Shown here one piece after another: positions 3,683 through 27,990 of a DNA stretch of 64,000 bases (position 1 is the first letter of the stretch; every line of letters begins with the position of its first letter). The translations under genes were made by a program, and so were the position numbers. Source of the stretch: Promethearchaeota archaeon (GTDB lineage Archaea; Asgardarchaeota; Heimdallarchaeia; Hodarchaeales; Hodarchaeaceae); the NCBI GenBank assembly GCA_048938105.1, contig JBHLMN010000012.1:64001-128000 (forward strand), read 5' to 3'. The notes under the pieces were generated by a model. It had not been told where the DNA came from. It saw only the letters and a list, made by a program, of their open reading frames with translations, and searched no databases.

Positions 3683-4387
3683 GTGAGAATAATGCCTTAT
3701 GTTCCTCCAGAATATTTAAAAACAATTGTACTTTTAGGAAACATTAACCACAATAGGAGAATTTGTCCTTTAGGTACTGGATTCTTAGTACAAGTAAAAA
3801 AAGAGGGGTATTCCCGTTTCTGGCTTGTCACTGCTGCTCATGTTGTTAAAGACGATATGAGTTATTTTTTTATGGGAAAAGATAGAAAAATAAATCGGAT
3901 CTCATTTGAAGCTTTAAAAGAAAAACTGGGAGTAGAGTGGCATATTTTTCAAGATGATTTTGCGATTATTAATGTTGGTTTCGACCTTGAAGCTCATGAT
4001 ATTAAATTAATTCAGTCGGATATGATTTTCAGTCGAGAAAGATTATTTCCAGGAGAAGATGTTTTCTTTCTCGGTTATCCACTAGGTTTTATTGAAGATA
4101 ATGATATAACTCCGTTTATTAGAATGGGAATTATTGCTAGAATGTACGATAATAAAAATAGGTTCATAATTGATGGTTATTCGACTGGTGGAAGTAGTGG
4201 AAGTCCTCTATTCATTCATTCTAAAATATTTTCACGACATGGACAATCGAGAAGTATGCCACAATTGATTGGAATGATTCAAGGGCATATACCTCACCCG
4301 AATCATCCTGATGAAAACACAAATTTAGCTCTCGCGCTGTCTGTAGAGAAGATACATTCTGAAATAATGAACTTAAATCAAGCCTAA
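3683..4387 (+). CDS. Trypsin-like serine protease (cytoplasmic, Trypsin_2 type)
   Basis: GTGFLV, VTAAHV (His), DFAII (Asp), GGSSGSP (Ser), LGYP; no signal peptide. Confidence 0.85.
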   Translation: MRIMPYVPPEYLKTIVLLGNINHNRRICPLGTGFLVQVKKEGYSRFWLVTAAHVVKDDMSYFFMGKDRKINRISFEALKEKLGVEWHIFQDDFAIINVGFDLEAHDIKLIQSDMIFSRERLFPGEDVFFLGYPLGFIEDNDITPFIRMGIIARMYDNKNRFIIDGYSTGGSSGSPLFIHSKIFSRHGQSRSMPQLIGMIQGHIPHPNHPDENTNLALALSVEKIHSEIMNLNQA

Positions 4388-5218: not shown

Positions 5219-6271
5219 GTGGGAATATTCATGGGGATAATTGTACGAGAATTTGACTATAAGGGAATGAAAGGAAGATTATTTAAGACTTCAAAAGATC
5301 TGATTTACAATGAATTAAAAGAAAAAATAGGTGAAAGCCTCAATTTTATTCCAAGAAAAATTCCAGATTATACTGATCATGGCATAGAACATGTTAAAAG
5401 AATGCAAGAAATTTTAGATGTCCTAAGTAATTTTATCAGACAGATCTCCACTCCTGGTCACCTTACTGATTTTGAATATCAAGCTTTAAAGTTTGCAATC
5501 TTATTTCATGATATTGGCAATTTACACTGTAGAACTTTTCATAATTTCCATTCATGTGAATTATTGCTAGGAAAAAAAACATACATTTCTGGGGGTTTAA
5601 CCACTAATACAATCAAGAGTGTAAATGAACAACTTAGAATATATGGCTTAAATAACTTAGATTTTGATGTATCATGGTCTGAAGAAGATATTTCTGGTTT
5701 AACGGAAAGAGAAATGAATTTTATTTCGTTAATCGCAGAATTGTGTAAATACCATAAGTTATCAACGAAATATTTGGATATGGAAGATAAACTCCTTGAA
5801 TTATGTAAGAATGAAGGGAATCTATTTCGAAAATTATCTTGTATCCTACGGATCTGTGATAATTTAGATCTTAGTCAACAGAGAACTCCAGGCTTAATAT
5901 ATGAAATGATGAAAACTGAAATGGACTGCGAAAGCAAAATAATTTGGGAGGCCCATAAGATTATGAAACCTCCAGAAATTCTTGTTTCTGATGACGAAAA
6001 ACATGTATTAATTGTGATAAGAATTGAAGAATTCTTTGAAAGAGAAGAAAACATTAAGAAATATATTCAGAATATTATAAATAGATATCGAGAAGAAATA
6101 ACAATTGGAACATGTAAACAAGCTAGAAGAACCGATTTAATTGAATTTGCTGAACTTGTAGATACACATATAATTATGAGTTTTTCTTCTCATGGAAGAA
6201 AAAAAGAGATCATTGAATATTTTTATACCAATAAAGCTCTAAAGAATACTGAAATTGAAAGTTTGTTATAA
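5219..6271 (+). CDS. HD-domain phosphohydrolase (HD-CE-like)
   Basis: YTDHGIEHVKR, LFHDIG, HNFHS, KYH and LRICDNLD motifs. Confidence 0.8.
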   Translation: MGIFMGIIVREFDYKGMKGRLFKTSKDLIYNELKEKIGESLNFIPRKIPDYTDHGIEHVKRMQEILDVLSNFIRQISTPGHLTDFEYQALKFAILFHDIGNLHCRTFHNFHSCELLLGKKTYISGGLTTNTIKSVNEQLRIYGLNNLDFDVSWSEEDISGLTEREMNFISLIAELCKYHKLSTKYLDMEDKLLELCKNEGNLFRKLSCILRICDNLDLSQQRTPGLIYEMMKTEMDCESKIIWEAHKIMKPPEILVSDDEKHVLIVIRIEEFFEREENIKKYIQNIINRYREEITIGTCKQARRTDLIEFAELVDTHIIMSFSSHGRKKEIIEYFYTNKALKNTEIESLL

Positions 6272-11466: not shown

Positions 11467-13593
11467 ATGTTTTTAATGACAATAAAGATTGGAGACCTAA
11501 ATAGTGAGATTTTAGAGCGAGTTGAAAATTACTTCAAGAATTTAAGAGGTTGGGGGTCCTTATTTGTTAAAGATCCTACTGATGCTGAATCAATTGAAGA
11601 GATAATTTCTGAATATGAAGAATTAGAAAAGAAATTTGTGAATTTCTACGGGGATGCTTTGAAAAATCTTAATGGTTTCAGTAATATGTTGTTATGGGGA
11701 AGAAGGGGAACTGGAAAGTCCACATATCTCACAAAAGCGTTTTTTCAACAAATTTACCAATTTAAAGGAAGAAAAAGAAATGTCCCCATTTTTATAGACT
11801 GTAATTTGTTGTTTAAAGAGGATTTAGAGGAGAATCTTCTGAATATCTCATATTTTTATGCAGGTTTAAAATCTCAGATTGTAAAATCATTATTGTTGTT
11901 CCAAAAAATCCTTCATCATTTTAATAAAAAGAATTTAGTAAGTTTAGATGAAGATGAATTAAGTTGTATCAAATTCAAAGGACCAGAGTTTGAAACTGAA
12001 GATTTCAGTGAAGATTTGGCTAGGAATAAGTATGATTTATTTCTTGAGAAATATTCTCAACAGCTCTATAACAACATTCAGAAAGAACAACCAATGAATT
12101 TTGATAGTATCCTGACCTTTCTTGTTGAACTCAAAAGACAATGGCAAGTACATGGTTTTATTTTCTATATAGATGAAGTTTCTGAATTCTTTATAGCTAA
12201 AGGGCATTTTAAAGAAAGTGTTCGAAATTATTTTTTAGATTTCATATCTAGGGCCATTTTGAATTACAGCAGTTTGATGGTTTTCAAGCTAGTTTTATAT
12301 CAAGAGGCTGATTTTGAGTACCTTCAACGAGGTGCTCCAAAAGATGTTAGAGTTCATCGTAAATACTTTAATTCTTTTGCTGCTCTGGATTTATTTGATG
12401 AAAACAAATATTTTGGAAGAAAAATTGGAATAAAAGGAACCTCGATAAAACGACAATACGAATTGGATTTAAACAAACATATTGATGCCATCTTTAATAA
12501 GGCTTCAAATGATTGGAATCGAATCATTGCTGACTTTGAAAAGAAAGAAATTCAAAACAAAATTTATAAGTATCTTCGTGAAAGTACAGGAGGAACGATT
12601 AGAGAATTAGGTTTCATAATCTCAGAGGCAATAAAACAGTCTAAAGAAAATAAGACCAGACCGATTAATGTTACCATTCCTAATTTAAGAGCTGCTATTA
12701 TTGCTCACTATAAAAAAATCAATACTTCACTATTGACAAAAGAAATTAAATTAATGGAGGAAGTTATAAGCACGAAAAAGAAAGATAGAGACCCTAATAT
12801 ACTTTATTTTACTGATCGAATTAATAGCTCTGATTATAAGCCTCTAGATAAGAATAATGTTGAAAAAGTCTTTAAACATAATTTTTTAGCAGAATTAGAG
12901 CAAAATTTCATTATAAATATTGTTTCAATGTTAAAAACCAATGGAAATACCGAAACAATTTTTGTTTTTCATCCTGGATATGCTTTTCAAAATACTTGGC
13001 CTGATAAAGATATTGAGTTTAATAGTAACTATTTAAGGCATAATTCAATGCATATTGCACTAAATTTAAGGTATAAAAACTCATTTTCAAAGTATTTCAA
13101 GAATTATATTGAAGAAATAGAAGTGGAAGAACAATCCATAAAGAAAAAATATCTAAATATTATAAAAGAGGGTCTTCTAAAAAAAGGGGAAAGTTTAACC
13201 TCAATTGAGAGATTTATCTTTCCTAGCTTGAAGAACCAATCAATTTATGGTCTAAAACTCTTTTGTGAAGAAGTTGGTATTGCATTAACTACAGAGTCTG
13301 ATGAAGAAGTAGCAGTAGAAGTTCCAGATCTTCCGATCGAATACGATGATGAAGAGAAATGGTTCGATGCATATTTAGAACGTGCGAGAAAAAAATTAAT
13401 CAGAACTCAATATTTAAAAGATTATCTAAAAATATTAGAAATAATAAATAATAAAGAAAAGGCTACTTTCGAGGATATTGGCGATGAACTTAATATCAGT
13501 TATCCTGTAAGCCGGAGAAAATACTTTATAAATTTTTTAAAGAAGAAATCGCTGATAAAAGAAATTGATGGAATTTTTCAAATAAAACGTTAA
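11467..13593 (+). CDS. STAND/ORC-CDC6-like P-loop ATPase with C-terminal winged HTH
   Basis: LLWGRRGTGKS (Walker A), FIFYIDE (Walker B), STGGTIRE (sensor-2-like); C-terminal ATFEDIGDELNIS...FLKKKSLI HTH. Confidence 0.75.
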   Translation: MFLMTIKIGDLNSEILERVENYFKNLRGWGSLFVKDPTDAESIEEIISEYEELEKKFVNFYGDALKNLNGFSNMLLWGRRGTGKSTYLTKAFFQQIYQFKGRKRNVPIFIDCNLLFKEDLEENLLNISYFYAGLKSQIVKSLLLFQKILHHFNKKNLVSLDEDELSCIKFKGPEFETEDFSEDLARNKYDLFLEKYSQQLYNNIQKEQPMNFDSILTFLVELKRQWQVHGFIFYIDEVSEFFIAKGHFKESVRNYFLDFISRAILNYSSLMVFKLVLYQEADFEYLQRGAPKDVRVHRKYFNSFAALDLFDENKYFGRKIGIKGTSIKRQYELDLNKHIDAIFNKASNDWNRIIADFEKKEIQNKIYKYLRESTGGTIRELGFIISEAIKQSKENKTRPINVTIPNLRAAIIAHYKKINTSLLTKEIKLMEEVISTKKKDRDPNILYFTDRINSSDYKPLDKNNVEKVFKHNFLAELEQNFIINIVSMLKTNGNTETIFVFHPGYAFQNTWPDKDIEFNSNYLRHNSMHIALNLRYKNSFSKYFKNYIEEIEVEEQSIKKKYLNIIKEGLLKKGESLTSIERFIFPSLKNQSIYGLKLFCEEVGIALTTESDEEVAVEVPDLPIEYDDEEKWFDAYLERARKKLIRTQYLKDYLKILEIINNKEKATFEDIGDELNISYPVSRRKYFINFLKKKSLIKEIDGIFQIKR

Positions 13594-13640: not shown

Positions 13641-14141
13641 TTGGTTGGTAAGAGAATAGCAAGTGATTATTATGTCCATCGAAAATATGTAAACAAAATT
13701 CAAAAAGAATTATTTATATTATATGAATTGGCCAAACTTGAATTATCACCTGAACAAGAAAAGAGCTGGAATATTTTAAAAGTTAACAAGAGGGAAAAGA
13801 GAGTTTCATTTTTGGAGTATCCAAAGTTTGATATTGATGCCCATCCAGAGTTAAAACACAGCATAAGCGTTAATCTATCAAAGTCTCCTCCAATTATACG
13901 GATAACACGAGGACGAGGGTATATTCTTCACAGGAAGGAGTTATTTATTGATAAGGACTACCCATTATACGCTAAATTTCATGAACTCACAAAAAAAGAG
14001 GAGGAATTCGGTCTTCTAGACGCCAAAATTGTTTTTAAAGGAAAAAAATTAGGGACTTTAATGGGGAGAAAGAAAATTTGGGAAGAATGGTTATCGTACA
14101 ACAATATAAAAATCTTAGATCATGAAATTGAAGTAGAATGA
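13641..14141 (+). CDS. Stand-alone non-catalytic domain of the DNA phosphorothioation-associated putative methyltransferase family (TIGR04096-like)
   Basis: VGK...YVH, VSFLEYPKFDIDAHPEL, ILHRKELF...YPLYAKFHELTKKEEEFGLLD, G...W...L..H match the terminal domain of that family as I recall it; no SAM motif. Confidence 0.75.
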   Translation: MVGKRIASDYYVHRKYVNKIQKELFILYELAKLELSPEQEKSWNILKVNKREKRVSFLEYPKFDIDAHPELKHSISVNLSKSPPIIRITRGRGYILHRKELFIDKDYPLYAKFHELTKKEEEFGLLDAKIVFKGKKLGTLMGRKKIWEEWLSYNNIKILDHEIEVE

Positions 14142-15341: not shown

Positions 15342-15791
15342 TATGAAGATCCTGGGATACATGAAAAACTTGAATAGTCATTTCAGTCTATATTGAGACT
15401 CAATAGATTATTTCGGGAAATTGAAAGAAAATAAAAAAAACCACTGTGATCATTTATGGATTCCATTTTTGTATTAATCAATTTTATAGAAAACGAAAAC
15501 AGAAAAAAAGAATTACTATATCTCGTTGGAGCCCACAAAGAGGCAATAATAGAATTAGATGTAAAATTAACTGGTATGCAGAAAGAAAGAAGCAAAGATT
15601 TCAAACCCTGGTTAATTGTAAAAAATAACACTCGGGGAATCTATTTAATAAATAAAATAATGAAGAAATTTGATCCCTGGGTTTCACTCTGGAAACAGAC
15701 TCCAATTTATCCTCATCAAATCCCAAAAGAAATAGTGGAGGTTGAAAGATGGGATCAAAACCTAGAAGAAAAGATGTTAAAAATAATGTAG
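15342..15791 (+). pseudogene. Probably 5'-decayed hypothetical gene (residual 111-aa ORF 15456-15791)
   Basis: The same frame reads protein-like upstream (YEDPGIHEKLE*SFQSILRLNRLFREIERK*KKPL*SF) with stops at 15375, 15432 and 15447. Confidence 0.4.
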
Positions 15792-15919: not shown

Positions 15920-17812
15920 ATGGATGACTGGGAGTTAACTGTTGAAAATATCGGGTGCTTTGTTGGAAAACATTCTTTTCTTTTTAAACAAGGTACAAAT
16001 GTGGTTATTGGGCCTAATGCTATAGGGAAGACGAGTTTGTTGCATGCATTCCAATTATTAATACCTCTGGATTCAAACATCATAGATACGAACATTTTGA
16101 ATTCTTCGTCAATGATTGGACATGTTCGCTTACAAAATGGTAATGATTGTTTTTTTATTGATATAGGGAGACGATCAGACGGTACTGTATGTGTTACCAG
16201 AAAAAAGAAGTTATTAACTGCGAACGAATTTGCTAAACAAGTTATTTTCTTAACAGAAAGCCACGAAATAATGGAAGCGGTGATAAAAGGAGATTTTAGT
16301 ATTTTAAAGGACTGGTTTGTGAGAATAACAGATTTAAACCTTTACCAAAAGGCTTATGGAGCTTGTATGAGGTTAGATTCTCGTTATAGAGACCAAAAAG
16401 ATCAGGAATCAAAACAAATACTAAAAGAGAAACATCGCTTACGCCAAGAACAGAAAAATATGCTTTCTGAAATTCGCAAAAAAAAATCAGTATTCAAAAA
16501 ATATCAGCTTGCATCAATTGCAAAAGAATTTGATTCTGAGCTTGTAACTAAATTTAGAAAGATTTCCTCCGAATTAGAAAGAATAAATAATGAATTGAAC
16601 AAATTAAAATTGGATAAAAATGTCTTAAAGACTCAACTCCCAAAGCTAACAAAGGATAAAGAAAATTTTCAATTAAAACTTTCAAAAATAGGAGAGAATT
16701 TTGAATCTGCAAAAGATCATGTTCAATATCACAATAATGAACTACAAAAGATTGACAGTGAAATTAAGCAGAAAAAATCTGTCCTTAATAAGATAAATAG
16801 AGAAATTTCACGATGTGATATTCTTATTTCGAATTTTATAAACACATTGGATGAAAATATAATCGAATGTTTGCACTGTGGTTCTGTGATATCGCAAATA
16901 CAATTAACCCAAAAACTAAGAACTATAGAAGATGAAAAAATTCATTTTGCAGAACAAAAATTAGAATTAACCAATTCAATATCTGAATTCCTAAATAATA
17001 GAAAAAAACATGAAGAACAACTTCAGGATATTAAAGTAGGACTTCCCAAAGAAGAAAAGGAACTTAGAAAGAAAATCGAAAGCACAAAAAACAAAATAAA
17101 TCGGCAAAAAAAGAAATTAACCGAACTCCAGAAAAGAATAGCGAGTAAAAATGAAGCATTAGACGAAATACAACTTATCTTTGAAAGTCTTCAGGGTCAA
17201 GTGCTGGAAAAATCCGAAAAGAAAAGCGAAATAGAACGCATGGAAAACGAATTACAAGGCGAACTCAAACATATGGAGAAGAGCTTAAGTAGGATCCAAA
17301 GTGACTTAACAAGAACAGAAACCCAGCTTTTAATGCTTAAAACATTTGATATAAAAAGAAAAAATCTGAAAAAAGTAATATATTTTGTCCAAAAAGGCAT
17401 TAAATCAATCCAAGAAAATATCTTGGACAAGATTAACTATCATCTTAACCAAATAATCACTGAATTGGATATACCATTTTTATCATCAATTAAGCTCGAT
17501 GATGATTTCAATCTGAAAATTGTTAGGAAAACAGGGGTACTTGGAGAATTTAGAGAACTTTCTGGTCTTGAAAAAAGATTAATTGCGATTCTTGTTGGTT
17601 TTTCAATAAAAAATGCACTCCTACAAGACTTTCCATTCTTTATTATTGATGAGACATTATATTCTGCAGATGATGAAAGTTTCGAGCAGATTATAAATTA
17701 TATTGGGCAAAATATAGATCTTTTGATTGTAACCCGATTAGGTACAAATCCAGATATTCAAAAGGGCGTATTGAATCAACAGAATATAGTTTATATGGAG
17801 AATGTGGCATGA
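15920..17812 (+). CDS. Rad50/SMC-like ABC ATPase with CxxC zinc hook (Sph/DndD-like)
   Basis: VENIG, GPNAIGKTS (Walker A), long coiled coils with central CLHCG, LSGLE signature, FFIIDE (Walker B). Confidence 0.85.
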   Translation: MDDWELTVENIGCFVGKHSFLFKQGTNVVIGPNAIGKTSLLHAFQLLIPLDSNIIDTNILNSSSMIGHVRLQNGNDCFFIDIGRRSDGTVCVTRKKKLLTANEFAKQVIFLTESHEIMEAVIKGDFSILKDWFVRITDLNLYQKAYGACMRLDSRYRDQKDQESKQILKEKHRLRQEQKNMLSEIRKKKSVFKKYQLASIAKEFDSELVTKFRKISSELERINNELNKLKLDKNVLKTQLPKLTKDKENFQLKLSKIGENFESAKDHVQYHNNELQKIDSEIKQKKSVLNKINREISRCDILISNFINTLDENIIECLHCGSVISQIQLTQKLRTIEDEKIHFAEQKLELTNSISEFLNNRKKHEEQLQDIKVGLPKEEKELRKKIESTKNKINRQKKKLTELQKRIASKNEALDEIQLIFESLQGQVLEKSEKKSEIERMENELQGELKHMEKSLSRIQSDLTRTETQLLMLKTFDIKRKNLKKVIYFVQKGIKSIQENILDKINYHLNQIITELDIPFLSSIKLDDDFNLKIVRKTGVLGEFRELSGLEKRLIAILVGFSIKNALLQDFPFFIIDETLYSADDESFEQIINYIGQNIDLLIVTRLGTNPDIQKGVLNQQNIVYMENVA

Positions 17813-19677
17813 GTCCTTTCAAATGGTGTTTAAATTGTCATATTCCACTCATTCAAAGTAAATGTGGGAATTCAAGACCTATACCCCATAAAGTAGTAGA
17901 TTTCATTTCTCGAGTGAAACCTGTTGGTAAAAAAGAGTATCAAATGTATAAAGCCCTTTTTGTTAACAATTCTGATACTGAAAGTGAATATACGATAGAG
18001 GATGAATCTAAGAAGGATAGAGCGAAACGTTTTCCCAAGATTCTTTATCGAAGTAGAAATCTACTATATTCTGAAATGTCAGAAGGAACACCTCATTTTA
18101 AGATATTATTACAGAGAGAAAATGATATTGATAATTGGGGATTAACTAATCGGAATATTATACTTCATGATAATAAAAATTACTTTAAAAGGTCCGAATA
18201 CAAAAAAATTAATGAATACTTCTGGACCGATCCTGAATATCGGAAGAAATTAATTGAAGGAAACAAAGAACGACTTGTGAAACTAGAGGAAAAGGCGCTT
18301 AAATTTATTCGTTGGGTTTACAAAAAAAAGAAAGAATCTAAGGTTTTTGTTTCTTTTAGCGGAGGTAAAGACAGCGCGGTAACTGCATATCTAACAAATA
18401 AAGCATTGTACAAAGAATTAGGTAGTGTTCCATTACTTTTTTCAAATACTGATATTGAATACCAAGAAACTGTGGACTATGTAAGAAAAAGAGATCTTGG
18501 TGAGGTTATAGAAGTAAAATCAAAGAATAAATTTCTTGATTTATGTGAAAAATTAGGTCCTCCAAGTCGCACTATGCGATGGTGTTGTTCAACACAAAAA
18601 GCATCACCAGTTAATCAATATTACTCGACAATAAAGAGTGAAATTTTAAGTTTTGACGGTATAAGAAGAGAAGAATCAAATTTAAGAGCTGAATATCCTC
18701 GACACCATCAGAATACGAAGCTACAACGCCAATATAGTGCTTATCCTATTTTAGATTGGTCTGAAATAGAGGTTTGGTTATTTACGCTTTGGCGTAATAT
18801 CCCTCTAAATCCCCTATATGATGAAGGTTTTGCTAGAATCGGATGTTGGGCTTGTCCAAATAACGGTCTATTTGATACATTTCTTTTCGAAAAAATTAAA
18901 CCCGAAATGGCTGATTATTGGTTTAAGAAGCTACGAACTTTCTCAGAGTCAATTTCTAATGAATACGATCACAAATATAAACATGATTGGATTTATCAAG
19001 GAAAATGGAAAGGACGGCGTGTAAAATATCATAATGAGTTAATTGGGGAAATTTCCCAACAAGATTCAAGCTTTGAGAACTTTGATATTGTTGATCCTGC
19101 AGAGGCAATATCAAAATATGATGAATTTCATGATGAAAATTCATTTGAGAATGAATCTAAGCCATGCAGCCAGACCAGTGTAATGGTTGTTTCATTGGAT
19201 CGCCCCTTAAAAGAAGACTCATTCGAATTTCTTAAAATTTTTGGGGATTCTAAACGTATTCTAATTGGAAATCAAACTTTGGTCAAGATAGAAGGACAAA
19301 AATATTCAATTCAGTATGTTGAAAATTCTAACAAAATTAAATATAAAATCCTAGAAAAAGAGAAGAATGAAAGAAACATATTACGTAATAGATTGATTCG
19401 TCAAATAAATAAATCTTTCAATTGTATTAAATGTGCCTCATGTGTTGGTCTTTGTCCTAAAGGAGCGATTAGTGTTATAGTTAACAGATACCAAGTAGAT
19501 TCAAGCAAATGCATTAATTGTTTAAAATGCACTTCGAGCAATCTGCTGAGTATGGGTTGTGTAGCCCTTCATTATAAACCTGATAGACTTTTAGTTGATC
19601 GAAATGTCACGAAACCGTCTTTAAAAGTGAGACATGATTCAGAAATGGTTACTGAATCTCAATTACTTACTACATAG
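17809..19677 (+). CDS. PAPS/APS-reductase-family PP-loop protein with C-terminal 4Fe-4S ferredoxin domain (DndC/SspD-like sulfur-insertion enzyme candidate)
   Basis: N-terminal WCLNC...C, SFSGGKDS, RWCC, GIRREES, RIGCWACP, CIKCASCVGLCP, CINCLKC; ATGA overlap with the SMC stop. Confidence 0.85.
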   Translation: MSPFKWCLNCHIPLIQSKCGNSRPIPHKVVDFISRVKPVGKKEYQMYKALFVNNSDTESEYTIEDESKKDRAKRFPKILYRSRNLLYSEMSEGTPHFKILLQRENDIDNWGLTNRNIILHDNKNYFKRSEYKKINEYFWTDPEYRKKLIEGNKERLVKLEEKALKFIRWVYKKKKESKVFVSFSGGKDSAVTAYLTNKALYKELGSVPLLFSNTDIEYQETVDYVRKRDLGEVIEVKSKNKFLDLCEKLGPPSRTMRWCCSTQKASPVNQYYSTIKSEILSFDGIRREESNLRAEYPRHHQNTKLQRQYSAYPILDWSEIEVWLFTLWRNIPLNPLYDEGFARIGCWACPNNGLFDTFLFEKIKPEMADYWFKKLRTFSESISNEYDHKYKHDWIYQGKWKGRRVKYHNELIGEISQQDSSFENFDIVDPAEAISKYDEFHDENSFENESKPCSQTSVMVVSLDRPLKEDSFEFLKIFGDSKRILIGNQTLVKIEGQKYSIQYVENSNKIKYKILEKEKNERNILRNRLIRQINKSFNCIKCASCVGLCPKGAISVIVNRYQVDSSKCINCLKCTSSNLLSMGCVALHYKPDRLLVDRNVTKPSLKVRHDSEMVTESQLLTT

Positions 19678-19685
19678 ATTTAAGT

Positions 19686-21884
19686 GTGAATCATATGCCT
19701 TTAGCTTTAAACATTGGTTATACTCCAGCACAGATAGATTTTTTTGACAGAAAATTCAATAAAATCAAAGAATATATTGATTTCGTAGATATTAAGTCCT
19801 CATTCCTAGTACAAAGAAACTCTATTGCCTCTATTGTACGAGCTTTAAGTTCCAAAAGTATTCGAGCATTTCTAGAAAGTGGTGGATTTTTTAATTTAAA
19901 TTTTGATGTGCCTAGAGATAGTAATTATATACCTGTTAATTCCACAAAATCCAAGAATAATTTCTTAGACTTTATAACTGAATTCAGTGACACACCTGCT
20001 TATTTCCAAGATAGTTGTAATAATCTAATCCTCCCAGTGATTTTAGATGGTGATAGTTCATTAAATCATCAGTACAAAAATTCTCTTTCGAATTTTATAT
20101 TAAATAATCTAAATAAAATTGATCGAATCTTCGATAAGCTCCTGATTAGATATCATTTTATAAAAAACAATTCAGAAATTGAATATTATATTAACGAGAT
20201 TGAAAGATACGAGGGGGATTATAAAAATAATATTAAGGAAAGTTTTTCTTTGTTTCTCAATATACCAGAGTGGCATCAGAAATTAGGGCAAAAAAAAACT
20301 CTACAATTATTGAGAAAACTTCGAGACACTGGTAGGAAAGTAGAAGTTTACCAAATTGCCGACTACCAGATCATAGATAATCAGGTACATTCTAATATAA
20401 CCATTGGTGAGGGGAGAATATCTTGGAGACCTTTCCTCAGTTACTTTAAAAATTCAAACATATTACTAGCAACAAAAGACGGCATTTCGTCAGTAAAAAA
20501 AAGTATGGCGCATTTAGGGGAAATTTCGATTAACAAGAAAGATAGAATTGATGGGAATTCCGTTGTTACGGGATTCTTTTTTTCTAGGGATAAAAAATCA
20601 TTCTTTCAATCGTCACCTGGTACAAAAATGGCATTAAAGTATATTAAGGACAATAAAATTAATGTAAACTCGATTCTAGATTTAGGTTGTGGAAATGGGA
20701 GGAATTCTTTTTATCTATCAAAAAATATAGATGCGAAAGCACATCTAATAGATATTGACAGAGATTTGTTAAACTATGTTAAGCTTAAATTCAAAACTTT
20801 TAATGTTAAAACTCCAGAGATAGAGGTAATAGATCTGGAAAATTTCGACCTATCACTTTTTAATACTAAATATGATATTACACTGCTTAGTTATGTGCTT
20901 CAGAATATATTTCCTGCTAATTATTTCAAATTGATGGATTTCTGTAGGATTATAACAAGAAAACTAATGATTTTCGAGATCTATGTCAATTTAAATGTTT
21001 ATCCAGAAGGAATGGTTACAAAACGAGGAGAGACTTTTTGGTATGGCTTTTCAAGCGATGAAGTCTTTAAATTATTTGAATCCTTTTTCGACGTAATAGG
21101 ATGGGATGTGAAAAAAGGAAAAGCGAATCCTTTAATGATTTCAATTGTTGGTAAACCGAGGGATACTGTAACAAATGGGGAAAGTATTTTAAGGCGGTAT
21201 AATAACATACAAACAGTTGACTATAGCTCAATAAGAAAGATTTATCCCAAGAAACAGGTTTCAACTAGAAAAAAAGTAAAAACAATTAGTTCTACAAAAA
21301 GAAAAGAGAGAATGATTGATAAAACTAACACAGATCATTGGAGGATACTATCCTCTCATTTATTGTCTACTGGATTGAGTAAAACTCAAATCAGTGTTTT
21401 GGAGTCAAAACTAGAAGAACTTGATTCATCATATAAACTAAAAGCTCCAGAAAATTTTGGTGCCTTACTTTTTTTAGTTGCTAGATTAAATCGCATTCCG
21501 ATTCATCTACAAGAGATTGTCAAGATTCTTGATGTTCGTAGGAAAGATATTCATCGTACAATGAAAGAAATTCAATATAGACATAATATCGCACGTAATC
21601 TTCCAAGTTTAGAAGCTTTTTTTGAACGATATTTTACAATTTTAAATCTAAATGAAATTTACGAAAGATCTCCTTCAGAGATCATTGAAGAAATAAAGAA
21701 TAATTATAACTGTAACCTTCTGGGATCCTTGCCTCACATATCAGCTCTAGCTATTGCAATACATCTTTTACGGTCTTCTGATAAAAGATCTAACCCTTCT
21801 CAGCTTGCTAGAAAAGTGTATATTTCCCCCTCTTCTCTTAAAAACAAACTTAGATTATTAGAAGGTATTCAGCTGGTTCAGTAA
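19686..21884 (+). CDS. Fusion: degenerate TIM-barrel + class I SAM methyltransferase + TFIIB/TFB cyclin-fold core
   Basis: ITIGEGRISW (AP-endonuclease-2-like TIM C-terminus); ILDLGCGNG, LIDID, YDITLLSYVL; C-terminal two cyclin repeats (GALLFLVARLNRIPIHLQEI...; GSLPHISALAI...SQLARKVYISPSSLKNK). Confidence 0.7.
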   Translation: MNHMPLALNIGYTPAQIDFFDRKFNKIKEYIDFVDIKSSFLVQRNSIASIVRALSSKSIRAFLESGGFFNLNFDVPRDSNYIPVNSTKSKNNFLDFITEFSDTPAYFQDSCNNLILPVILDGDSSLNHQYKNSLSNFILNNLNKIDRIFDKLLIRYHFIKNNSEIEYYINEIERYEGDYKNNIKESFSLFLNIPEWHQKLGQKKTLQLLRKLRDTGRKVEVYQIADYQIIDNQVHSNITIGEGRISWRPFLSYFKNSNILLATKDGISSVKKSMAHLGEISINKKDRIDGNSVVTGFFFSRDKKSFFQSSPGTKMALKYIKDNKINVNSILDLGCGNGRNSFYLSKNIDAKAHLIDIDRDLLNYVKLKFKTFNVKTPEIEVIDLENFDLSLFNTKYDITLLSYVLQNIFPANYFKLMDFCRIITRKLMIFEIYVNLNVYPEGMVTKRGETFWYGFSSDEVFKLFESFFDVIGWDVKKGKANPLMISIVGKPRDTVTNGESILRRYNNIQTVDYSSIRKIYPKKQVSTRKKVKTISSTKRKERMIDKTNTDHWRILSSHLLSTGLSKTQISVLESKLEELDSSYKLKAPENFGALLFLVARLNRIPIHLQEIVKILDVRRKDIHRTMKEIQYRHNIARNLPSLEAFFERYFTILNLNEIYERSPSEIIEEIKNNYNCNLLGSLPHISALAIAIHLLRSSDKRSNPSQLARKVYISPSSLKNKLRLLEGIQLVQ

Positions 21885-21889
21885 CAATT

Positions 21890-23125
21890 GTGGTAAATAT
21901 GGATCCATATGAATTTAGAAATTCTATTCCTCTTCTACGAAACAATCCAGATATCGTCTATTTAGATTCAGCTACAACTACATTAATTCCTGATACTGTA
22001 ATACAACGAATGAAAGAATTTTATGAAGAAATTGGGGTCATTCCAAATCGTGGAGCTTATGATTTAGTACTTCAATCAAATAAGACTTTAAATAAGGTAC
22101 GAAATAGTGTCTCGAATTTTTTTAATGTTGATTTTAATAGAATCGCCTTCACAACGAGTACTTCACATGGTTCTGCAACAGCGATCGCTGTTACAAACCT
22201 TACAAAGAAAGATAGAGTTTTATTTGCATCAAATTTACACAATTCGTCATTTTTAAATTGGTTTAGATTTGTACAAAAGAACTCAATAAATTTTGACTTC
22301 ATTAAATTGAATAAAGATGGTCAAGTCTTAATAGATGATTTAGAAGATAAAATTTCTCTGAAGATTCCCGGTAGAACAATAGTAGTTTTAGATCATGCAC
22401 CAATGGGTTTTGGTACGTTATTAAATTTAAATGTTGCATCAGAGGTAATACATAACACAAAAGATTCATATCTTTTTCTTGATGCTACTAGAACAGCTGG
22501 CTTAGTAGATTTAGATATATCAAGAGAAAATATTGATTATCTTGTCTGTCAAAGCCATGTGGGATTCTTTGCTCCTCCTGGAACAGGGATACTTATCGTT
22601 CCAGAGGAAGTTAATGGTGAACCATGTTATATAGGTTCAGGATCTGTAATTGACACTTCTAAAGAGTACTATCATTTATCCCCCTATCCTAATAGTGTTG
22701 AAATTGATAGTGTTAATATTGGAGGTTTAGTTGGATTAGAAGCTGGTATAAAATTGCTTAATGAAATTGGGATAAATGAAATCAGAAATCATTGTATGAA
22801 ATTAATCGAAATCTTCTGTAAAAATGTAGAAATGAGTGATGATATTCTTTTATTTGGATCATCTGATCCTTTAAGTCGGTCAAATTTACTTAGCATTAAA
22901 TTTAAAAATATAAGCTGTCATGACCTTGCCTTTTATGTTCATGAATTGGGAAAAATTTGTGTTCGATCTGGAAGTCTTTGTAGTCATCTACTTATTAGAG
23001 AAATTAATTCTAATATTAATAATGGATTTACACAATTCTCATTTAACTATTATAATACGGAGTTGGATTTAAAAAAAGCAATTGAAATTCTCAACTCAAT
23101 AAATATGAAAAAAAAAGAATTATAA
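21890..23125 (+). CDS. SufS/DndA-like cysteine desulfurase homolog, PLP-lysine substituted
   Basis: VYLDSATTT, AFT.STS, LDATR, PPGTGIL, VRSGSLCSH (Cys364). QSHVG stands in place of SGHK. Confidence 0.8.
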   Translation: MVNMDPYEFRNSIPLLRNNPDIVYLDSATTTLIPDTVIQRMKEFYEEIGVIPNRGAYDLVLQSNKTLNKVRNSVSNFFNVDFNRIAFTTSTSHGSATAIAVTNLTKKDRVLFASNLHNSSFLNWFRFVQKNSINFDFIKLNKDGQVLIDDLEDKISLKIPGRTIVVLDHAPMGFGTLLNLNVASEVIHNTKDSYLFLDATRTAGLVDLDISRENIDYLVCQSHVGFFAPPGTGILIVPEEVNGEPCYIGSGSVIDTSKEYYHLSPYPNSVEIDSVNIGGLVGLEAGIKLLNEIGINEIRNHCMKLIEIFCKNVEMSDDILLFGSSDPLSRSNLLSIKFKNISCHDLAFYVHELGKICVRSGSLCSHLLIREINSNINNGFTQFSFNYYNTELDLKKAIEILNSINMKKKEL

Positions 23126-23136
23126 TGTGAAACTCT

Positions 23137-25335
23137 TCATAATTTCATAAGGAGATTGTTAATATCAAATAATTCTTTCATTAATTCATGCTTGTTTTCT
23201 GCATAATCTGCGAAGAAAGTAATTCTTTGATTTTCAATTCTAATTATGTTTTTTGCTAGTCTTGGATGTCTTTCCATTTGATTTGAATTTGGTAGGACTA
23301 TTATATCATAGATTACAACTGGTTCTTCCTTTTTTTTGTTTTTTCTTAGTATTCTACCAGCTCTTTGAATATGTTCTAATGCGGATCCTGAGCTTGCCAT
23401 AAAGATTGCTTTTTCCAAACATGGTATGTCTACGCCTTGGTCTAGGCATTTCATTGCAATTAGTGTATTTATATCTTTATTTGCTAAATTGTTAATATAG
23501 ATTTGCCTTTCTTTGTTATCCATGTTACCATCAATCAGATTAAAACTAATTTTAAACTGTTTTTGTGAATACAATTCCATAATAACGCTTCTTACATCTC
23601 GTGTAATATGCTCTTTATCTCTACAATATATTACACATTTCTCGAACTCTTTCTTATTGATTAAGTCAAGTATGATCGATTTTAAAACTTTTCTTTTGTG
23701 CTTACATTTTTTTATTATATCTGCTCTTTGATTGAGTAATATGGTTCTATAATCCTCTCTTGCTATGCCCCTAATTTTACTTATTTGTGTTGATAAATCT
23801 TCATATTGTTTGATATCATTATCGTCAAAATAACATTTGAAAATTTTGTACTCAAATTTACAGACAACGCCAAGCTCTTGAGCATCTTTCAGCGTTAGTT
23901 CATACAGATCCCTATTTTCATTAAGAAACCAATCAAGTATTTTTAGAGTTCCTTCCTCATCAAAATGTCTTTGAGGAGTAGCACTAAGACCAATTTTATA
24001 GTCGGGGTTAAAATTTTCCATTAAAAATATTCCTGTAGGTGTTCCAAGGCTATGTGCTTCGTCGGCAATAAATAAAACCCTTGATCTCTTGCTTAATCCT
24101 TTTTTATTAATAACCTCTCTATTTAAAATCTCGGGTTTAAGCGATTTGTATGTTCCAACTATATAGCAGTGATCTTGCTCTAATAGCAGTATTTTATCTA
24201 TGTGATTCCGTAGTTCTTTCTTCCAAGTAGGGTTCTCATGGTAGCATTTGATAACATATTTCGAATATCTATTTAATTCTTTATACCATTGATCAACTAA
24301 ATATCTATCAGGAACCCCAATAATAGTTATAAGTTTTAATCCTTCTTTCTTAAGTTTTAAATATAAATTATAACTAGCAAAAATCGATGTTTTAGTTTTT
24401 CCTGTTCCTGTTGCCATTGCAAGAAATCCAATGAACTTATTCTTATCCAAGTGATCCAATGCATCTCTTTGAGGTTCCCATGGTTTATCTTTCTCGATGT
24501 TGGGTATTAATAACCCTTCAGTGAAATTCCAAGTAGAATTCTTGCTAAATTCCTCAAACAATTTGTAAAAAGAAGTGGTTTTTATGTGTTCATTAAAAAC
24601 GTGATCAAAATGAGAAAAATTTATTTTATTTAAATCTTTAGGTTTGTATTTTGAGATAATATAATCTTTTAATCCTTTGGGAAAAGAAGAAACTTTAAGA
24701 CATGAATCTTTGTTATCCCAATATAATTGAAATTTCTCAAAATCCAATTGTGCATATTTTTTTGTATCATCCCAACTTCTAAACGTTTTTATTTCTTCAC
24801 GATTTTGTGACCAAGCCATATAAGTCATGTTTGAAGAACCTGAAAACGAAATATAATCTTGACCATCACTCAAAATCCCAATCTTTTCGTGTAAAATCCT
24901 CTCGAATAATAATTCCGATATTTTTTCTTCTGTACTAAATACTGGAATTGCAAATTTGATTTCTATTCTATTATAGTACAATAACCAGGCTAATAATTTA
25001 TAATGTTCATCTAGATCAGACCTTAAATTTATTTGATTAAGAAAATCCTCCTTGAGGATCTCTTCAAAATTCTCTGCTAACTCATTTCTTGCCATTAAAA
25101 GTAAATTTAATTCCTGATTTCTTGGAACTCCAATGATGATTTTTATTTTTCCATTATTTTTTTGGATAAAATTATACAATCCGTAAAATAATGGAATAAA
25201 AATCTTTGCTGAAAAATATCCAGTAATATACCAAAATTTTTTTGATTCATTGAGTACAGGTACTAAAAATTCATCAAAAAGGTTATCCCAACCCGTTGTA
25301 TAACTAATTTTGAGTTCCAAGTCCCTTAAAGGCAA
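23137..25335 (-). CDS. pbeA: PLD nuclease + SF2 DEAD/DEAH helicase (PbeA / dnd-system restriction enzyme type)
   Basis: TGYFS, LHEKIGILSD (HxKxxxxD), SGSSN, MATGTGKT, DEAH, LSATP, QGVDIP, QRAGR. Confidence 0.75.
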   Translation of the reverse strand: MPLRDLELKISYTTGWDNLFDEFLVPVLNESKKFWYITGYFSAKIFIPLFYGLYNFIQKNNGKIKIIIGVPRNQELNLLLMARNELAENFEEILKEDFLNQINLRSDLDEHYKLLAWLLYYNRIEIKFAIPVFSTEEKISELLFERILHEKIGILSDGQDYISFSGSSNMTYMAWSQNREEIKTFRSWDDTKKYAQLDFEKFQLYWDNKDSCLKVSSFPKGLKDYIISKYKPKDLNKINFSHFDHVFNEHIKTTSFYKLFEEFSKNSTWNFTEGLLIPNIEKDKPWEPQRDALDHLDKNKFIGFLAMATGTGKTKTSIFASYNLYLKLKKEGLKLITIIGVPDRYLVDQWYKELNRYSKYVIKCYHENPTWKKELRNHIDKILLLEQDHCYIVGTYKSLKPEILNREVINKKGLSKRSRVLFIADEAHSLGTPTGIFLMENFNPDYKIGLSATPQRHFDEEGTLKILDWFLNENRDLYELTLKDAQELGVVCKFEYKIFKCYFDDNDIKQYEDLSTQISKIRGIAREDYRTILLNQRADIIKKCKHKRKVLKSIILDLINKKEFEKCVIYCRDKEHITRDVRSVIMELYSQKQFKISFNLIDGNMDNKERQIYINNLANKDINTLIAMKCLDQGVDIPCLEKAIFMASSGSALEHIQRAGRILRKNKKKEEPVVIYDIIVLPNSNQMERHPRLAKNIIRIENQRITFFADYAENKHELMKELFDINNLLMKL

Positions 25336-25899: not shown

Positions 25900-27990
25900 C
25901 TATTTCCTCACTAATTTAGCATTATCATTTTTTGGATTTTCTATTTCATATTTTATTCCAATTTTTTGGTCAAAAATTGGTCTTAAATCTTCTATTTCAT
26001 TAATATCAGGTTTAGTGGCAAGTAAATTATTTTCCTTAGCAAAGAAAATAATTTGATTCCCTGAATATATTCCTGGTAATTTTTCGACAACTTGTTTTCG
26101 AGTTTCTGAGTCGATATTCCCAAAAGGAGAGTCAAAAATTAAAGGTAATTCGACATCTAGTACTTTTGCCAATGAAGATATAAAGGACATTCCTACAATA
26201 TTAGTTTGACCAGTCGATGTATTCATAATTTTTGAACCAGAACTAAAGATGGCCTCAAAAATCCATCCTTTTCCAATATCTTTTATGTTTAATGACAACC
26301 AATTTTCTGGATCTCTTACTAAAGTTTTTAATGTCTCTAAAGTTTCTTCCTCACACTTTTTTCGAATAACTTCAGCTACATTCTCTTCAATTTCAGAAAT
26401 TATTTTTAAATAAAATTCAGTTAAAGATCTACATTTTTGATAACATTCAGACTTGTCAGTAGATTTATCTGTTTCAGATACCATTTTATTATATTGTTTT
26501 TCCGCGTTTAGCTTATCATTTTTGATGTTATCAATTTCCATAAGGTAGTGCAGTTTATCTTGTTCAATTGATCCGATTAATTGATCTCCCAAAGAAATTT
26601 GATTTTCTAAATCTATAATTTCTTGATACCATTCTTCTGATTGTTCTTCAGGTGTTAATTTCGTTTTTAGTACATCAATTTTTGTTTTTATTTCAATAAC
26701 CTCTTGATTTATTTTTAGAAATTCCTTTTGATTTTCTAAAATGCTTTGTTTCCCAGTCTTAAGCAATTTTAACTTTGCTCCTAATTCTGCTTCAAATTTA
26801 ATTGCAGTTTCCCCTAAAATACTATTATCAGCCTTTTTTAGTATTTTATTTATTCTTGCCTTCATTTCAGTATTCCAAGGAGTTCCACAAACACAAGATC
26901 CATGTCTTTCTAATATTGTTTGAAGTACCTCTGATGTAAGTTTTCCAGGAATAATGTCTTTTTCTCTTTTCTCCTTAATATCCTTTAAAATCCTTTTCAT
27001 TGTTTGTTCTAAATATAGAATCGGTAAAAATTGCATCAATAACCTTTCTCGCCTCTCGATGATCTGATCCCTCCTTATTGCTTTCTCCTCTAATTTTTGA
27101 ATCAAATTATTATAGTCTCTTACGAAATCAATCTTACCTTGAACATTTTGTCTTCTGTTCCTTAATTCAGCTAATTCTGATCTTCTAATTTCTAGTTCAG
27201 TTATCTTCTCTGCTACTTTTGTTTCCAATTCTTTTTTCTTTTTTCCAAAATTTTCAATTTCCTCTTTCTTATCCTTTAATTTCTTGCCTTTGGCAGTCAC
27301 AGCTAAGTATTTATTTTGGAAGTAATTACTTGCTCTATCAAGATAAACTTGCAAAGTTTTTATTTTTGGATAATCTGAAATATCCAATGAATAATTTTTC
27401 AAATTCCCTACATTCTCAATAGATAATAAATGATTTAATCCTTCACCAAAAATGAACACGAAATCCCTCATTGATCTAGGAAAATATTTGTTAATCAAAT
27501 TTAAATATATTTCATCTGGATTTGGTACTTTTGATGCATTTTTATAGATTAACTTTCTTTCTGATTTCTTCAATTTTCCATTAGCAAACTGTATCCCTTT
27601 AGCGGTTTTCTTAAATTTTATATATCGATGTAATTCTAAAAAATTTAAGTTTCCAGAACGATCAATTTGTTCAAGTTCAATGCATCCCCCAACTTCAAAA
27701 CTGTTACCTACCTCTATTTTTCTTTTTACTACAGAGTTGGCTGCTTCTTTAATATTATGATCAGTAAAAAATTTGAGTTCCTTTAGCATTTCTTTCTCAT
27801 CAAATGATGGGAATAAAATCCAGTACATTAATTGAAATATCGAACTCTTACCAGAACCTGTATCACCAAGAAACAAAGTTACATTTTTTTCTTTATCAAC
27901 GGAAAATAACATTTCGTGTTCTCCAACAAATGGACCGAAATTAAGAATTCTCATTTTTTTGAAGGTTAAGCGAGGATTTTGAACCAACAT
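25900..27990 (-). CDS. pbeC: DndD/PbeC-like SMC-type ABC ATPase with CxC hook
   Basis: NFGPF, GDTGSGKSS, coiled coils with CVCG, STGQ signature, LIFDSPFGNID. Confidence 0.7.
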   Translation of the reverse strand: MLVQNPRLTFKKMRILNFGPFVGEHEMLFSVDKEKNVTLFLGDTGSGKSSIFQLMYWILFPSFDEKEMLKELKFFTDHNIKEAANSVVKRKIEVGNSFEVGGCIELEQIDRSGNLNFLELHRYIKFKKTAKGIQFANGKLKKSERKLIYKNASKVPNPDEIYLNLINKYFPRSMRDFVFIFGEGLNHLLSIENVGNLKNYSLDISDYPKIKTLQVYLDRASNYFQNKYLAVTAKGKKLKDKKEEIENFGKKKKELETKVAEKITELEIRRSELAELRNRRQNVQGKIDFVRDYNNLIQKLEEKAIRRDQIIERRERLLMQFLPILYLEQTMKRILKDIKEKREKDIIPGKLTSEVLQTILERHGSCVCGTPWNTEMKARINKILKKADNSILGETAIKFEAELGAKLKLLKTGKQSILENQKEFLKINQEVIEIKTKIDVLKTKLTPEEQSEEWYQEIIDLENQISLGDQLIGSIEQDKLHYLMEIDNIKNDKLNAEKQYNKMVSETDKSTDKSECYQKCRSLTEFYLKIISEIEENVAEVIRKKCEEETLETLKTLVRDPENWLSLNIKDIGKGWIFEAIFSSGSKIMNTSTGQTNIVGMSFISSLAKVLDVELPLIFDSPFGNIDSETRKQVVEKLPGIYSGNQIIFFAKENNLLATKPDINEIEDLRPIFDQKIGIKYEIENPKNDNAKLVRK

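Follow-up and report, generated by a model that had tools for sequence, protein, structure and literature searches.

Few components of transcription in archaea and eukaryotes are as conserved as archaeal TFB and its eukaryotic counterpart TFIIB, whose core is, to our knowledge, known only as a promoter-assembly factor. DNA phosphorothioation, a modification linked to defence, is partial at its consensus sites. The subject of this text is a protein in which the two meet: a TFB core joined to an S-adenosylmethionine (SAM) methyltransferase and a TIM barrel, and encoded within an operon of the phosphorothioation type. Its gene lies in a stretch of 64,000 nucleotides (nt) from a Promethearchaeota archaeon of the Hodarchaeales (contig JBHLMN010000012.1, positions 64,001 to 128,000 of the forward strand), referred to below as the window, and coordinates given without a locus name are positions in it.

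The closest described systems are the archaeal DndCDEA-PbeABCD systems (PMC6459918) and the BREX type 4 systems with BrxP (PMC12914056). PAPS (3'-phosphoadenosine-5'-phosphosulfate) reductases of the BrxP type make phosphorothioate, as demonstrated by experiment (PMC12914056), and PbeABCD acts against viruses as a module linked to phosphorothioate (Xiong et al. 2019, PMC6459918). The window has in common with these systems a writer of the PAPS-reductase family, an SMC-like ATPase, a cysteine desulfurase homologue and the PbeA/PbeC pair. It differs from them in that its PAPS reductase is BrxP-like and carries a ferredoxin tail, its desulfurase homologue is without the lysine that binds pyridoxal phosphate (PLP), neither DndE nor DndB is detected, and there is an extra gene, that of the TIM–methyltransferase–TFB protein. 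Non-catalytic or accessory DNA-associated parts are already known from dnd operons in DndB, which is DGQHR/ParB-like, and DndE, a double ribbon-helix-helix protein, but these folds are unrelated to the fusion protein (PMC10853773), which in canonical loci co-occurs with DndB and DndE and does not replace them. A dnd-linked methyltransferase is likewise a recognised theme, in the form of TIGR04096 (DNA phosphorothioation-associated putative methyltransferase); the methyltransferase of the fusion protein gives no signal with this family even at E <= 1.

A keyword search of the literature found no published description of a TIM–methyltransferase–TFB fusion. The terms TFIIB, cyclin and TIM-barrel are not mentioned in the searched text of a reappraisal of Dnd systems (PMC10853773) or of a BREX survey (PMC12839542), and a paper on the Asgard defensome (PMC13700489), in which the terms Dnd, Pbe and phosphorothioate do not occur, refers to TFIIB only for a TFB encoded by a virus. 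The evidence set out below suggests that the fusion protein is a new conserved accessory component, and a new domain architecture, in phosphorothioation-type systems. We put at about an even chance the reading that we favour, in which the protein would be an accessory subunit of a phosphorothioation-type (Dnd/BrxP-like) module and its TFB core the domain that targets DNA, or possibly complexes of DNA with the TATA-binding protein (TBP).

The TFB core and its partner domains

The open reading frame (ORF) of the fusion gene extends over 19686..21884 on the forward strand and comprises 732 codons from a GTG or, from the ATG at 19695, 729 amino acids (aa). A stored 729-aa record, P0002, is 100% identical to the fusion protein and, like the close relatives, opens with MPLA; the ATG is therefore the likelier start and is probably the true one. 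The domains follow each other in the order degenerate TIM barrel, intact TehB-like SAM methyltransferase, basic linker and two-cyclin TFB/TFIIB core. This is the layout that a sequence-only reading of the stretch had proposed, and all its parts were recovered: an N-terminal TIM-barrel remnant (the superfamily fold is present and its ligands are lost), a SAM motif LDLGCGNG at about 20676 (nt 20676-20699, residues 331-338), a basic linker (15 K/R in 47 residues, pI 10.9, no Cys) and, from about 21333, two cyclin-like repeats ending in a helix-turn-helix (HTH), the core starting at nt ~21327 by profile, AlphaFold2 and Foldseek.

The first TFB/TFIIB cyclin repeat (21327..21605, forward strand; residues 548-640) has helices at residues 551-561, 566-579, 588-601, 608-615 and 619-633 and retains R600, P605 and E610. 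In the second (21606..21881, forward strand; residues 641-732) the helices lie at 642-652, 663-673, 683-697, 704-710 and 715-731. The HTH, SQLARKVYISPSSLKNK (21798..21848, forward strand; residues 705-721), is the equivalent of BH4'-BH5' of TFB, and its K719-N720 corresponds to the R-N of the TFB recognition helix.

Taken singly, the window sequence gives a weak TFIIB signal. Pfam PF00382 matches with E = 0.03 and 14.8 bits, under the cutoff of 23.6; NCBIfam NF001658 matches the fusion protein with E = 3.7e-5 at residues 593-673, the alignment covering no more than positions 172-252 of the 312 in the profile; and the C-terminal region finds its closest PDB sequence in the Pyrococcus TFB core 1AIS_B, with E = 0.024 and collinear across both repeats. 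The C-terminal parts of 12 fusion proteins, and no canonical TFBs, were then combined into a profile. Against the PDB, this fusion-only profile finds Pyrococcus TFB (1D3U_B and 1AIS_B) with E = 1.4e-18 and the human TFIIB core with ~4e-16, followed by Brf1 (1e-6) and yeast TFIIB (8e-5), and it matches the four canonical TFBs that the host genome carries elsewhere at 7e-17 to 8e-15. From a library of 1.84 billion proteins it draws 4,396 matches; those beyond the fusion family are proteins of ~300-330 aa aligned at about residues 150-300, canonical TFBs by the hundred, and the one that was inspected, P0032, consists of a zinc ribbon and two TFIIB repeats. Several relatives, P0015 and P0019 among them, score above the Pfam TFIIB cutoff. 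Modelling of the C-terminal region and its comparison with TFIIB, which the sequence-only reading had put forward as a check, gave a TFIIB-type double cyclin fold. The AlphaFold2 model of residues 535-732, whose underlying alignment took in canonical TFBs, contains two five-helix repeats (pLDDT 90.3, pTM 0.84), and the top ~20 PDB chains returned for it by Foldseek are all TFIIB/TFB (7EGB_R, 1VOL_A, 1C9B_A, 1AIS_B and 1D3U_B among them), with Brf1/Brf2 and cyclin A next. The region from residue ~548 is a genuine two-cyclin TFB/TFIIB core.

With the core of archaeal TFB and eukaryotic TFIIB (PF00382; 1AIS, 1D3U, 1VOL, 1C9B) the fusion core shares the tandem five-helix cyclin repeats, the ACR arginine, the P and E of PRTxxEI, the G.SP motif and the C-terminal HTH with R/K-N. 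Unlike them it stands behind a methyltransferase in a defence island and is not a basal factor, and it is without the zinc ribbon, B-reader and B-linker and, within the core, without the R-G-R-S loop, the PRT arginine, three tyrosines and T-Q. The missing zinc ribbon had been noticed from the sequence alone; no match to Zn_Ribbon_TF (PF08271) was found in the fusion protein, and the 47 residues ahead of the core are free of Cys. These 47 residues are the basic linker (21186..21326, forward strand; residues 501-547), which together with the methyltransferase upstream of it stands where TFB has its zinc ribbon, B-reader and B-linker. As these three elements are gone, the core cannot recruit RNA polymerase. 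In distant long-form members of the family (P0007, P0008, P0028, P0029) the linker carries one or two C-x2-C-x5-C-x4-C ... W motifs, each of which is possibly a small zinc knuckle; the motif is missing from the window protein and its close relatives.

Conservation of the core was assessed against 15 canonical TFBs, among which 25 columns reach 80% conservation or more. Thirteen of these columns are retained in the fusion family, including the ACR arginine (R600), P605, E610, the G.SP motif and the I-R-N of the recognition helix, which is I-R-N across the family and has K719-N720 in the window protein. Also conserved in the fusion protein are R600 and K619 as the equivalents of R169 and K188 of human TFIIB, which we take to be contacts of the TBP stirrup. 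The recognition-helix arginine of TFIIB reads the upstream B recognition element (BRE), while the G-R loop touches DNA downstream of TATA. By these TFIIB contacts, the fusion core would have retained major-groove reading and part of the TBP face and would have lost the downstream DNA contact. Besides its four canonical TFBs, the host genome contains a fifth, very divergent TFB-like match (G000:C18:94368-95054, L009), a 374-aa ORF that matches NF001658 with E = 8e-6 over model positions 16-243.

The class-I SAM-dependent methyltransferase (20583..21185, forward strand; residues ~300-500) is intact and TehB-like. Its SAM-binding motif I, ILDLGCGNGRN, lies at 20673..20705 on the forward strand (residues 330-340), and it is matched by the Pfam families Methyltransf_25 (E = 3e-9, 37.9 bits, cutoff 27) and TehB (24.6 bits, cutoff 20.4). 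Invariant in the family are D332, G334, C335, G336, N337, G338, R339, N340, D356, E385, D397, Y403, Q406, N435 and W452. The D-L-G-C-G-N-G-R-N motif is also found in enterobacterial TehB and drew TehB genes from the genome collection, and the structural neighbours of the domain in the ESM Atlas are TehB-annotated clusters. The scores fall far under the cutoffs of the TehB equivalogs (NF008405, 26.2 vs 218 bits; TIGR00477, 21.3 vs 219.5 bits), and the closest families are the small-molecule enzymes TehB, ArsM, CpaM and UbiE-type, with the ArsM and CpaM matches weak. Thus the domain shares the Rossmann fold and motif I with the TehB tellurite/selenite methyltransferase (PF03848) and with class I enzymes of the ArsM/UbiE type, but it sits between two other domains and its context is DNA modification, not tellurite resistance. 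A PADLOC match to mad2 (E = 6.6e-9), the N6-adenine methyltransferase of the MADS system, extends over no more than the Rossmann core, and membership of that system was rejected.

The N-terminal domain (19698..20534, forward strand; residues ~5-283) is a TIM barrel of the xylose-isomerase-like/AP_endonuc_2 superfamily. Pfam gives no match for it in the window protein alone, while PF01261 is found in three of eight aligned relatives, in P0036 above the cutoff. The AlphaFold2 model of residues 1-300 has a pLDDT of 79.8, and with it Foldseek reaches UlaE at E = 1.4e-8. VIA Z-scores of 15-16 are obtained alike for tagatose epimerase-like proteins (16.3 for one), Endo IV of T. maritima (Nfo, 15.9), the ASFV AP endonuclease and xylose isomerases; nuclease and sugar isomerase/epimerase are alike candidates for the enzyme class of the barrel. 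Searches of the PDB sequences gave nothing significant with an N-terminal profile of the whole family, and with a profile of intact members a sole, weak match to the putative sugar isomerase 3LMZ. The barrel belongs to the same superfamily as Endonuclease IV and xylose isomerase (PF01261), and in distant family members H56, H105, E141, D178, H209/D212 and E250 are invariant, giving the ligand pattern H, H, E, D, H/D, E; presumably these are the usual E/D/H/E tetrad and the two extra histidines of Endo IV. The window protein differs in six of the seven ligands: H56, H105, E141, D178, H209 and E250 read N, D, R, N, Q and A, and D212 alone is retained. The motifs LHGEGE, LHPD, ESRG, DIAQ, HxSD and E..GG of its relatives have become NLNFD, LDGD, RYH, NIPE, QIAD and ATKDG. 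The metal ligands are likewise replaced in the nearest relatives, and on these substitutions the barrel of the window protein is judged catalytically degenerate.

Relatives and operon context

Full-length homologues at 71, 68 and 43% identity are found in independent assemblies, as are three-domain homologues at ~20% identity (P0007, P0008, P0028, P0029 and P0036), and the identical three-domain order occurs in at least eight independent assemblies; the fusion is thus old. There are also short methyltransferase–TFB forms of ~405 aa, several of which (P0015, P0019) exceed the Pfam TFIIB cutoff. In L003 and L093 a gene of its own, directly upstream, encodes the TIM barrel; in L097 the barrel is again separate and the methyltransferase is broken into two ORFs. 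From this pattern of fusion and fission it follows that the three domains are functionally tied.

In the window, the gene immediately upstream of the fusion encodes a PP-loop PAPS reductase with a C-terminal 4Fe-4S ferredoxin domain (17809..19677, forward strand). It is closest to BrxP (E = 9e-68), with SspD/DndC weaker; it overlaps by 4 nt with the gene of an SMC-like ABC ATPase of the ASRP/DndD/PbeC/LmuB kind (15920..17812, forward strand), and the fusion gene begins 8-17 nt downstream of it. Five nt past the stop codon of the fusion gene starts that of a protein with the SufS/DndA-like class-V aminotransferase fold (21890..23125, forward strand; SspA/DndA, E = 1e-26). This protein is without the PLP Schiff-base lysine, having QSHV where DndA has SAHK, and retains the persulfide cysteine (RSGSLC); its orthologue in L001 likewise lacks the lysine (QGQT). 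It may be a pseudo-desulfurase or a sulfur carrier. Neither DndB nor DndE was detected in the operon. With the PAPS reductase, the ATPase and the desulfurase homologue adjoining it, the fusion gene belongs to a Dnd/BrxP-type operon. Convergent with it, 11 nt from the SufS-like gene, is PbeA, with a PLD/HKD nuclease and an SF2 helicase (23137..25335, reverse strand; dnd_restrict_1, E = 5e-150), and beyond this lies a PbeC-type ABC ATPase (25900..27990, reverse strand; E = 1e-41). In this Asgard (Hodarchaeales-related) defence island, a modification module of the phosphorothioation type and a PbeC/PbeA restriction module converge on each other as a pair.

The association is conserved. In nine of the ten loci examined, the fusion gene or its split counterparts have a PAPS reductase gene as a neighbour, usually with a DndD-like ATPase and DndB/E/A genes. 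The BrxP-like/ASRP-like arrangement of the window recurs in L001, in a metagenome-assembled genome (MAG) of the same genus (L011) and on the contig that encodes P0028 and P0006, and canonical dndB-C-D-E(-A) operons flank the fusion in L002, L091, L092 and L093. The archaeal contig L003, which carries MCM, RFC and GINS, has a PAPS reductase and a JAB protein beside it. In L002 the neighbour is a true DndC that shares 49% identity with annotated dndC genes; its best matches are on haloarchaeal plasmids (49%), with Rhizobium close behind (48%), and are not decisive for taxonomy. This context, which the sequence-only reading had not drawn on, is the decisive one: it makes the fusion gene a conserved accessory gene in phosphorothioation modules of the Dnd/BrxP type.

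The family is thinly spread. Two of the 399 genomes of the host phylum have the fusion gene, namely the host and the one same-genus MAG, in which the synteny of the window operon is repeated. Beyond one Hodarchaeota MAG, a scan of the genome collection returned plain TehB-like genes, and two that were inspected (L012, L014) are stand-alone methyltransferases of ~240 aa. No relatives of the fusion protein were found in the plasmid and phage collections, and the ESM Atlas contains generic methyltransferase clusters only, no cluster of at least 50 members having the fusion.

Three further observations concern the surroundings of relatives. In the canonical dnd locus L002 an Ada Zn-binding protein (PF02805, the methyl-phosphotriester repair domain) is encoded directly upstream of P0007, at L002:9560-9907; this is one instance. 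In two unrelated loci, the P0028 contig and L092:2093-3379, the fusion gene has as its neighbour a B12-binding and DUF2284 protein of ~425 aa, and NCBIfam lists an ArsM-DUF2284 fusion family. Finally, the 532-aa protein P0037, encoded by the last gene of a DpdA/TGT-type operon (L096:5264-9599), combines a ribbon-less TFB core with an N-terminal region without a family match. The operon encodes a 254-aa protein, a BrxD-like ATPase, a TGT/DpdA-like protein and P0037, and adjoins a strong DpdA (E = 1e-80); it could possibly be an archaeal Dpd-type system with a TFB-core subunit. As P0037 lies beside DpdA, TFB cores accompany two kinds of DNA-modification machinery.

What the fusion protein may do

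In the reading that we favour, the TFB core and the very basic linker would form a module for DNA recognition or tethering. The core would bind DNA via its BRE-type recognition helix and possibly dock on TBP–DNA complexes, and the methyltransferase and the co-encoded PP-loop/ATPase sulfur-insertion machinery would thereby be brought to the DNA. The methyl group would most likely go to the modified backbone, or to some part or intermediate of the machinery that modifies it, and not to adenine or cytosine, because the build of the enzyme is that of TehB and ArsM, which act on soft nucleophiles, unlike that of DNA base methyltransferases. Binding to promoters, if any, would be non-productive, since the core cannot recruit RNA polymerase. 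Retention of the DNA-reading elements (the recognition helix, R600, P605 and E610) across the family speaks for this reading, as do the tight spacing of the fusion gene within its operon, the PAPS reductase beside it in nine of ten loci, the convergent PbeA/PbeC module and the recurrence of a ribbon-less TFB core in P0037, in an operon of the DpdA/TGT type. Identity between the window and L001 is 65% for the methyltransferase, 58% for the PAPS reductase, 44% for the SMC-like ATPase, 40% for the TFB domain and 34% for the TIM barrel; faster divergence of the last three than of the enzymatic cores is as expected for specificity or contact modules, but the comparison is of this single pair of loci.

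The sequence-only reading had suggested that the methyltransferase could be aimed at promoters or TBP–DNA complexes and so couple DNA modification to transcription start sites. The targeting half of this idea is compatible with the retained R/K-N motif of the recognition helix and the ACR arginine, and is weakened by the loss of the R-G-R-S loop, the PRT arginine and several TFB-invariant residues. Its other half fares less well: classical DNA methylation at start sites is unlikely for a TehB-like methyltransferase without motif IV.

Several findings count against the favoured reading. Motif IV of DNA base methyltransferases, as (D/N/S)PP(Y/F/W) or PCQ, was not found in the methyltransferase, which has LSYVLQNIFP after beta-4. 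In the core, 12 of the 25 TFB-conserved positions are lost, the R-G-R-S loop, PRT arginine, three tyrosines and T-Q included, and with the first three of these gone TBP/BRE docking of the canonical type may be gone too. Phosphorothioate production by the window operon is not certain, as the SufS-like partner has no PLP lysine. A role with TBP would need a family confined to archaea, and most members are metagenomic and of uncertain taxonomy. L097 has TIM, methyltransferase and TFB genes and no dnd gene in view, and P0006 is without a TFB domain, though a full three-domain paralogue adjoins it.

That a TFB core stripped of its polymerase-contacting parts is a fixed component of phosphorothioation-type operons suggests the reuse of part of the basal transcription machinery for aiming a system that modifies DNA. 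Should the core still read DNA or TBP–DNA, it would be the first domain of a basal transcription factor to serve as the targeting module of a restriction-modification-like defence. It would then also offer a handle on the standing question of how the minority of consensus sites receiving phosphorothioate is chosen, and would flag an uncharacterised, conserved methyltransferase step in phosphorothioation-type systems. As the family is very small and rare, its general impact is limited unless the mechanism is unusual.

The absence of the polymerase-recruiting parts, with the core and HTH retained, would also suit an autoregulator or repressor of the operon. The ribbon-less core would occupy the BRE/TATA–TBP complex of its own promoter and block TFB, so tuning the expression of a potentially toxic modification-restriction system from that promoter or a small set of promoters, and the methyltransferase would be a sensor of SAM or sulfur, or an unrelated enzyme. 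Dnd operons need a dedicated repressor, DndB (PMC10853773, PMC12914056), and neither DndB nor DndE is detectable in the window operon. Four other loci, though, have DndB together with the fusion, so that a regulator is already there; the invariant SAM and catalytic motifs, and the full set of TIM metal ligands in distant members, point to an enzyme and not a sensor; and nothing points to a cognate promoter. We hold autoregulation to be unlikely, if still worth keeping in mind.

Less likely again is a function confined to small molecules, in which a TehB/ArsM-type enzyme would act on reactive sulfur, selenium or metalloid by-products of sulfur transfer and the TFB-like and TIM domains would be structural or vestigial. 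The nearest methyltransferase families (TehB, ArsM, CpaM and UbiE-type) are in keeping with this, and so are the B12-binding/DUF2284 proteins that flank the fusion in two loci, DUF2284 being known in fusion to ArsM (NCBIfam). A vestigial core is hard to square with a fusion to a domain of the DNA/TBP-binding type that persists across ~20% identity, with the conserved HTH motif and with an association with DNA-modification operons rather than sulfur metabolism.

Two further schemes are improbable. The protein could be conceived as a promoter-aimed editor of the backbone: the TFB core would dock on TBP/BRE complexes, the methyltransferase would S-methylate phosphorothioates, and members with an intact Endo IV-like barrel would hydrolyse the resulting triester. 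Phosphorothioates would then be erased or re-marked around transcription start sites, and basal transcription would be linked to a defence mark on the DNA backbone. The chalcogen/metalloid type of the methyltransferase, the binding of backbone phosphates by Endo IV-type barrels, the partial phosphorothioation of consensus sites and the Ada Zn-binding gene upstream of the fusion in L002 are hints only. The second scheme, of comparably low probability, had been suggested by the sequence-only reading for viral promoters and makes the core a decoy for, or sensor of, viral TFBs or promoters, which it would compete with or detect and so trigger or direct defence. Asgard viruses and mobile elements are reported to encode TFB homologues (bioRxiv 10.1101/2021.07.29.453957; PMC13700489), and the fusion gene is patchily distributed and lies in a defence island. 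Within that island, however, it stands in the modification half of the locus and not the restriction half, the family also accompanies canonical dnd operons of hosts without taxonomy, and the scheme, which is purely inferential, finds no sign of a sensor-effector architecture.

An artefact of assembly, frameshift or gene calling that joined methyltransferase and TFB genes, for which the split forms of L003, L093 and L097 might be cited, is hardly credible, because the ORF is continuous with no stop codon, the same fusion, sought elsewhere as the sequence-only reading had advised, recurs from 71% to ~20% identity in independent metagenomes, the TIM barrel is split off in some loci, and the same-genus MAG repeats the synteny.

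Other genes of the defence island

The operon is headed by a gene for a 111-aa protein (15456..15791, forward strand), 68-72% identical in L001 and L011, for which Pfam, PADLOC and NCBIfam gave no match. The possibility that it is a divergent DndE was rejected, the hhalign probability being 0.2%. Further upstream, 6 kb from the fusion gene, a 166-aa ORF (13641..14141, forward strand) consists of the C-terminal domain of TIGR04096 alone (positions 323-475 of 478; E = 4e-22), and this stand-alone form is conserved in L001 with 63% identity. It is preceded by the gene of a 708-aa P-loop protein (11467-13593) with no confident family match, which is 65% identical to a syntenic gene in L001 and probably belongs to the same island module.

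The GC content is ~30% across the first 30 kb of the window and 35-40% in the remainder. No tRNA genes that might mark the island boundaries are present in the window. Three further genes of defence type lie in the low-GC stretch, at 1253-3415 (PD-(D/E)XK nuclease joined to a HerA/FtsK ATPase), 3683-4387 (trypsin-like peptidase) and 5219-6271 (HD-CE protein), and with these genes there too it is a defence island.

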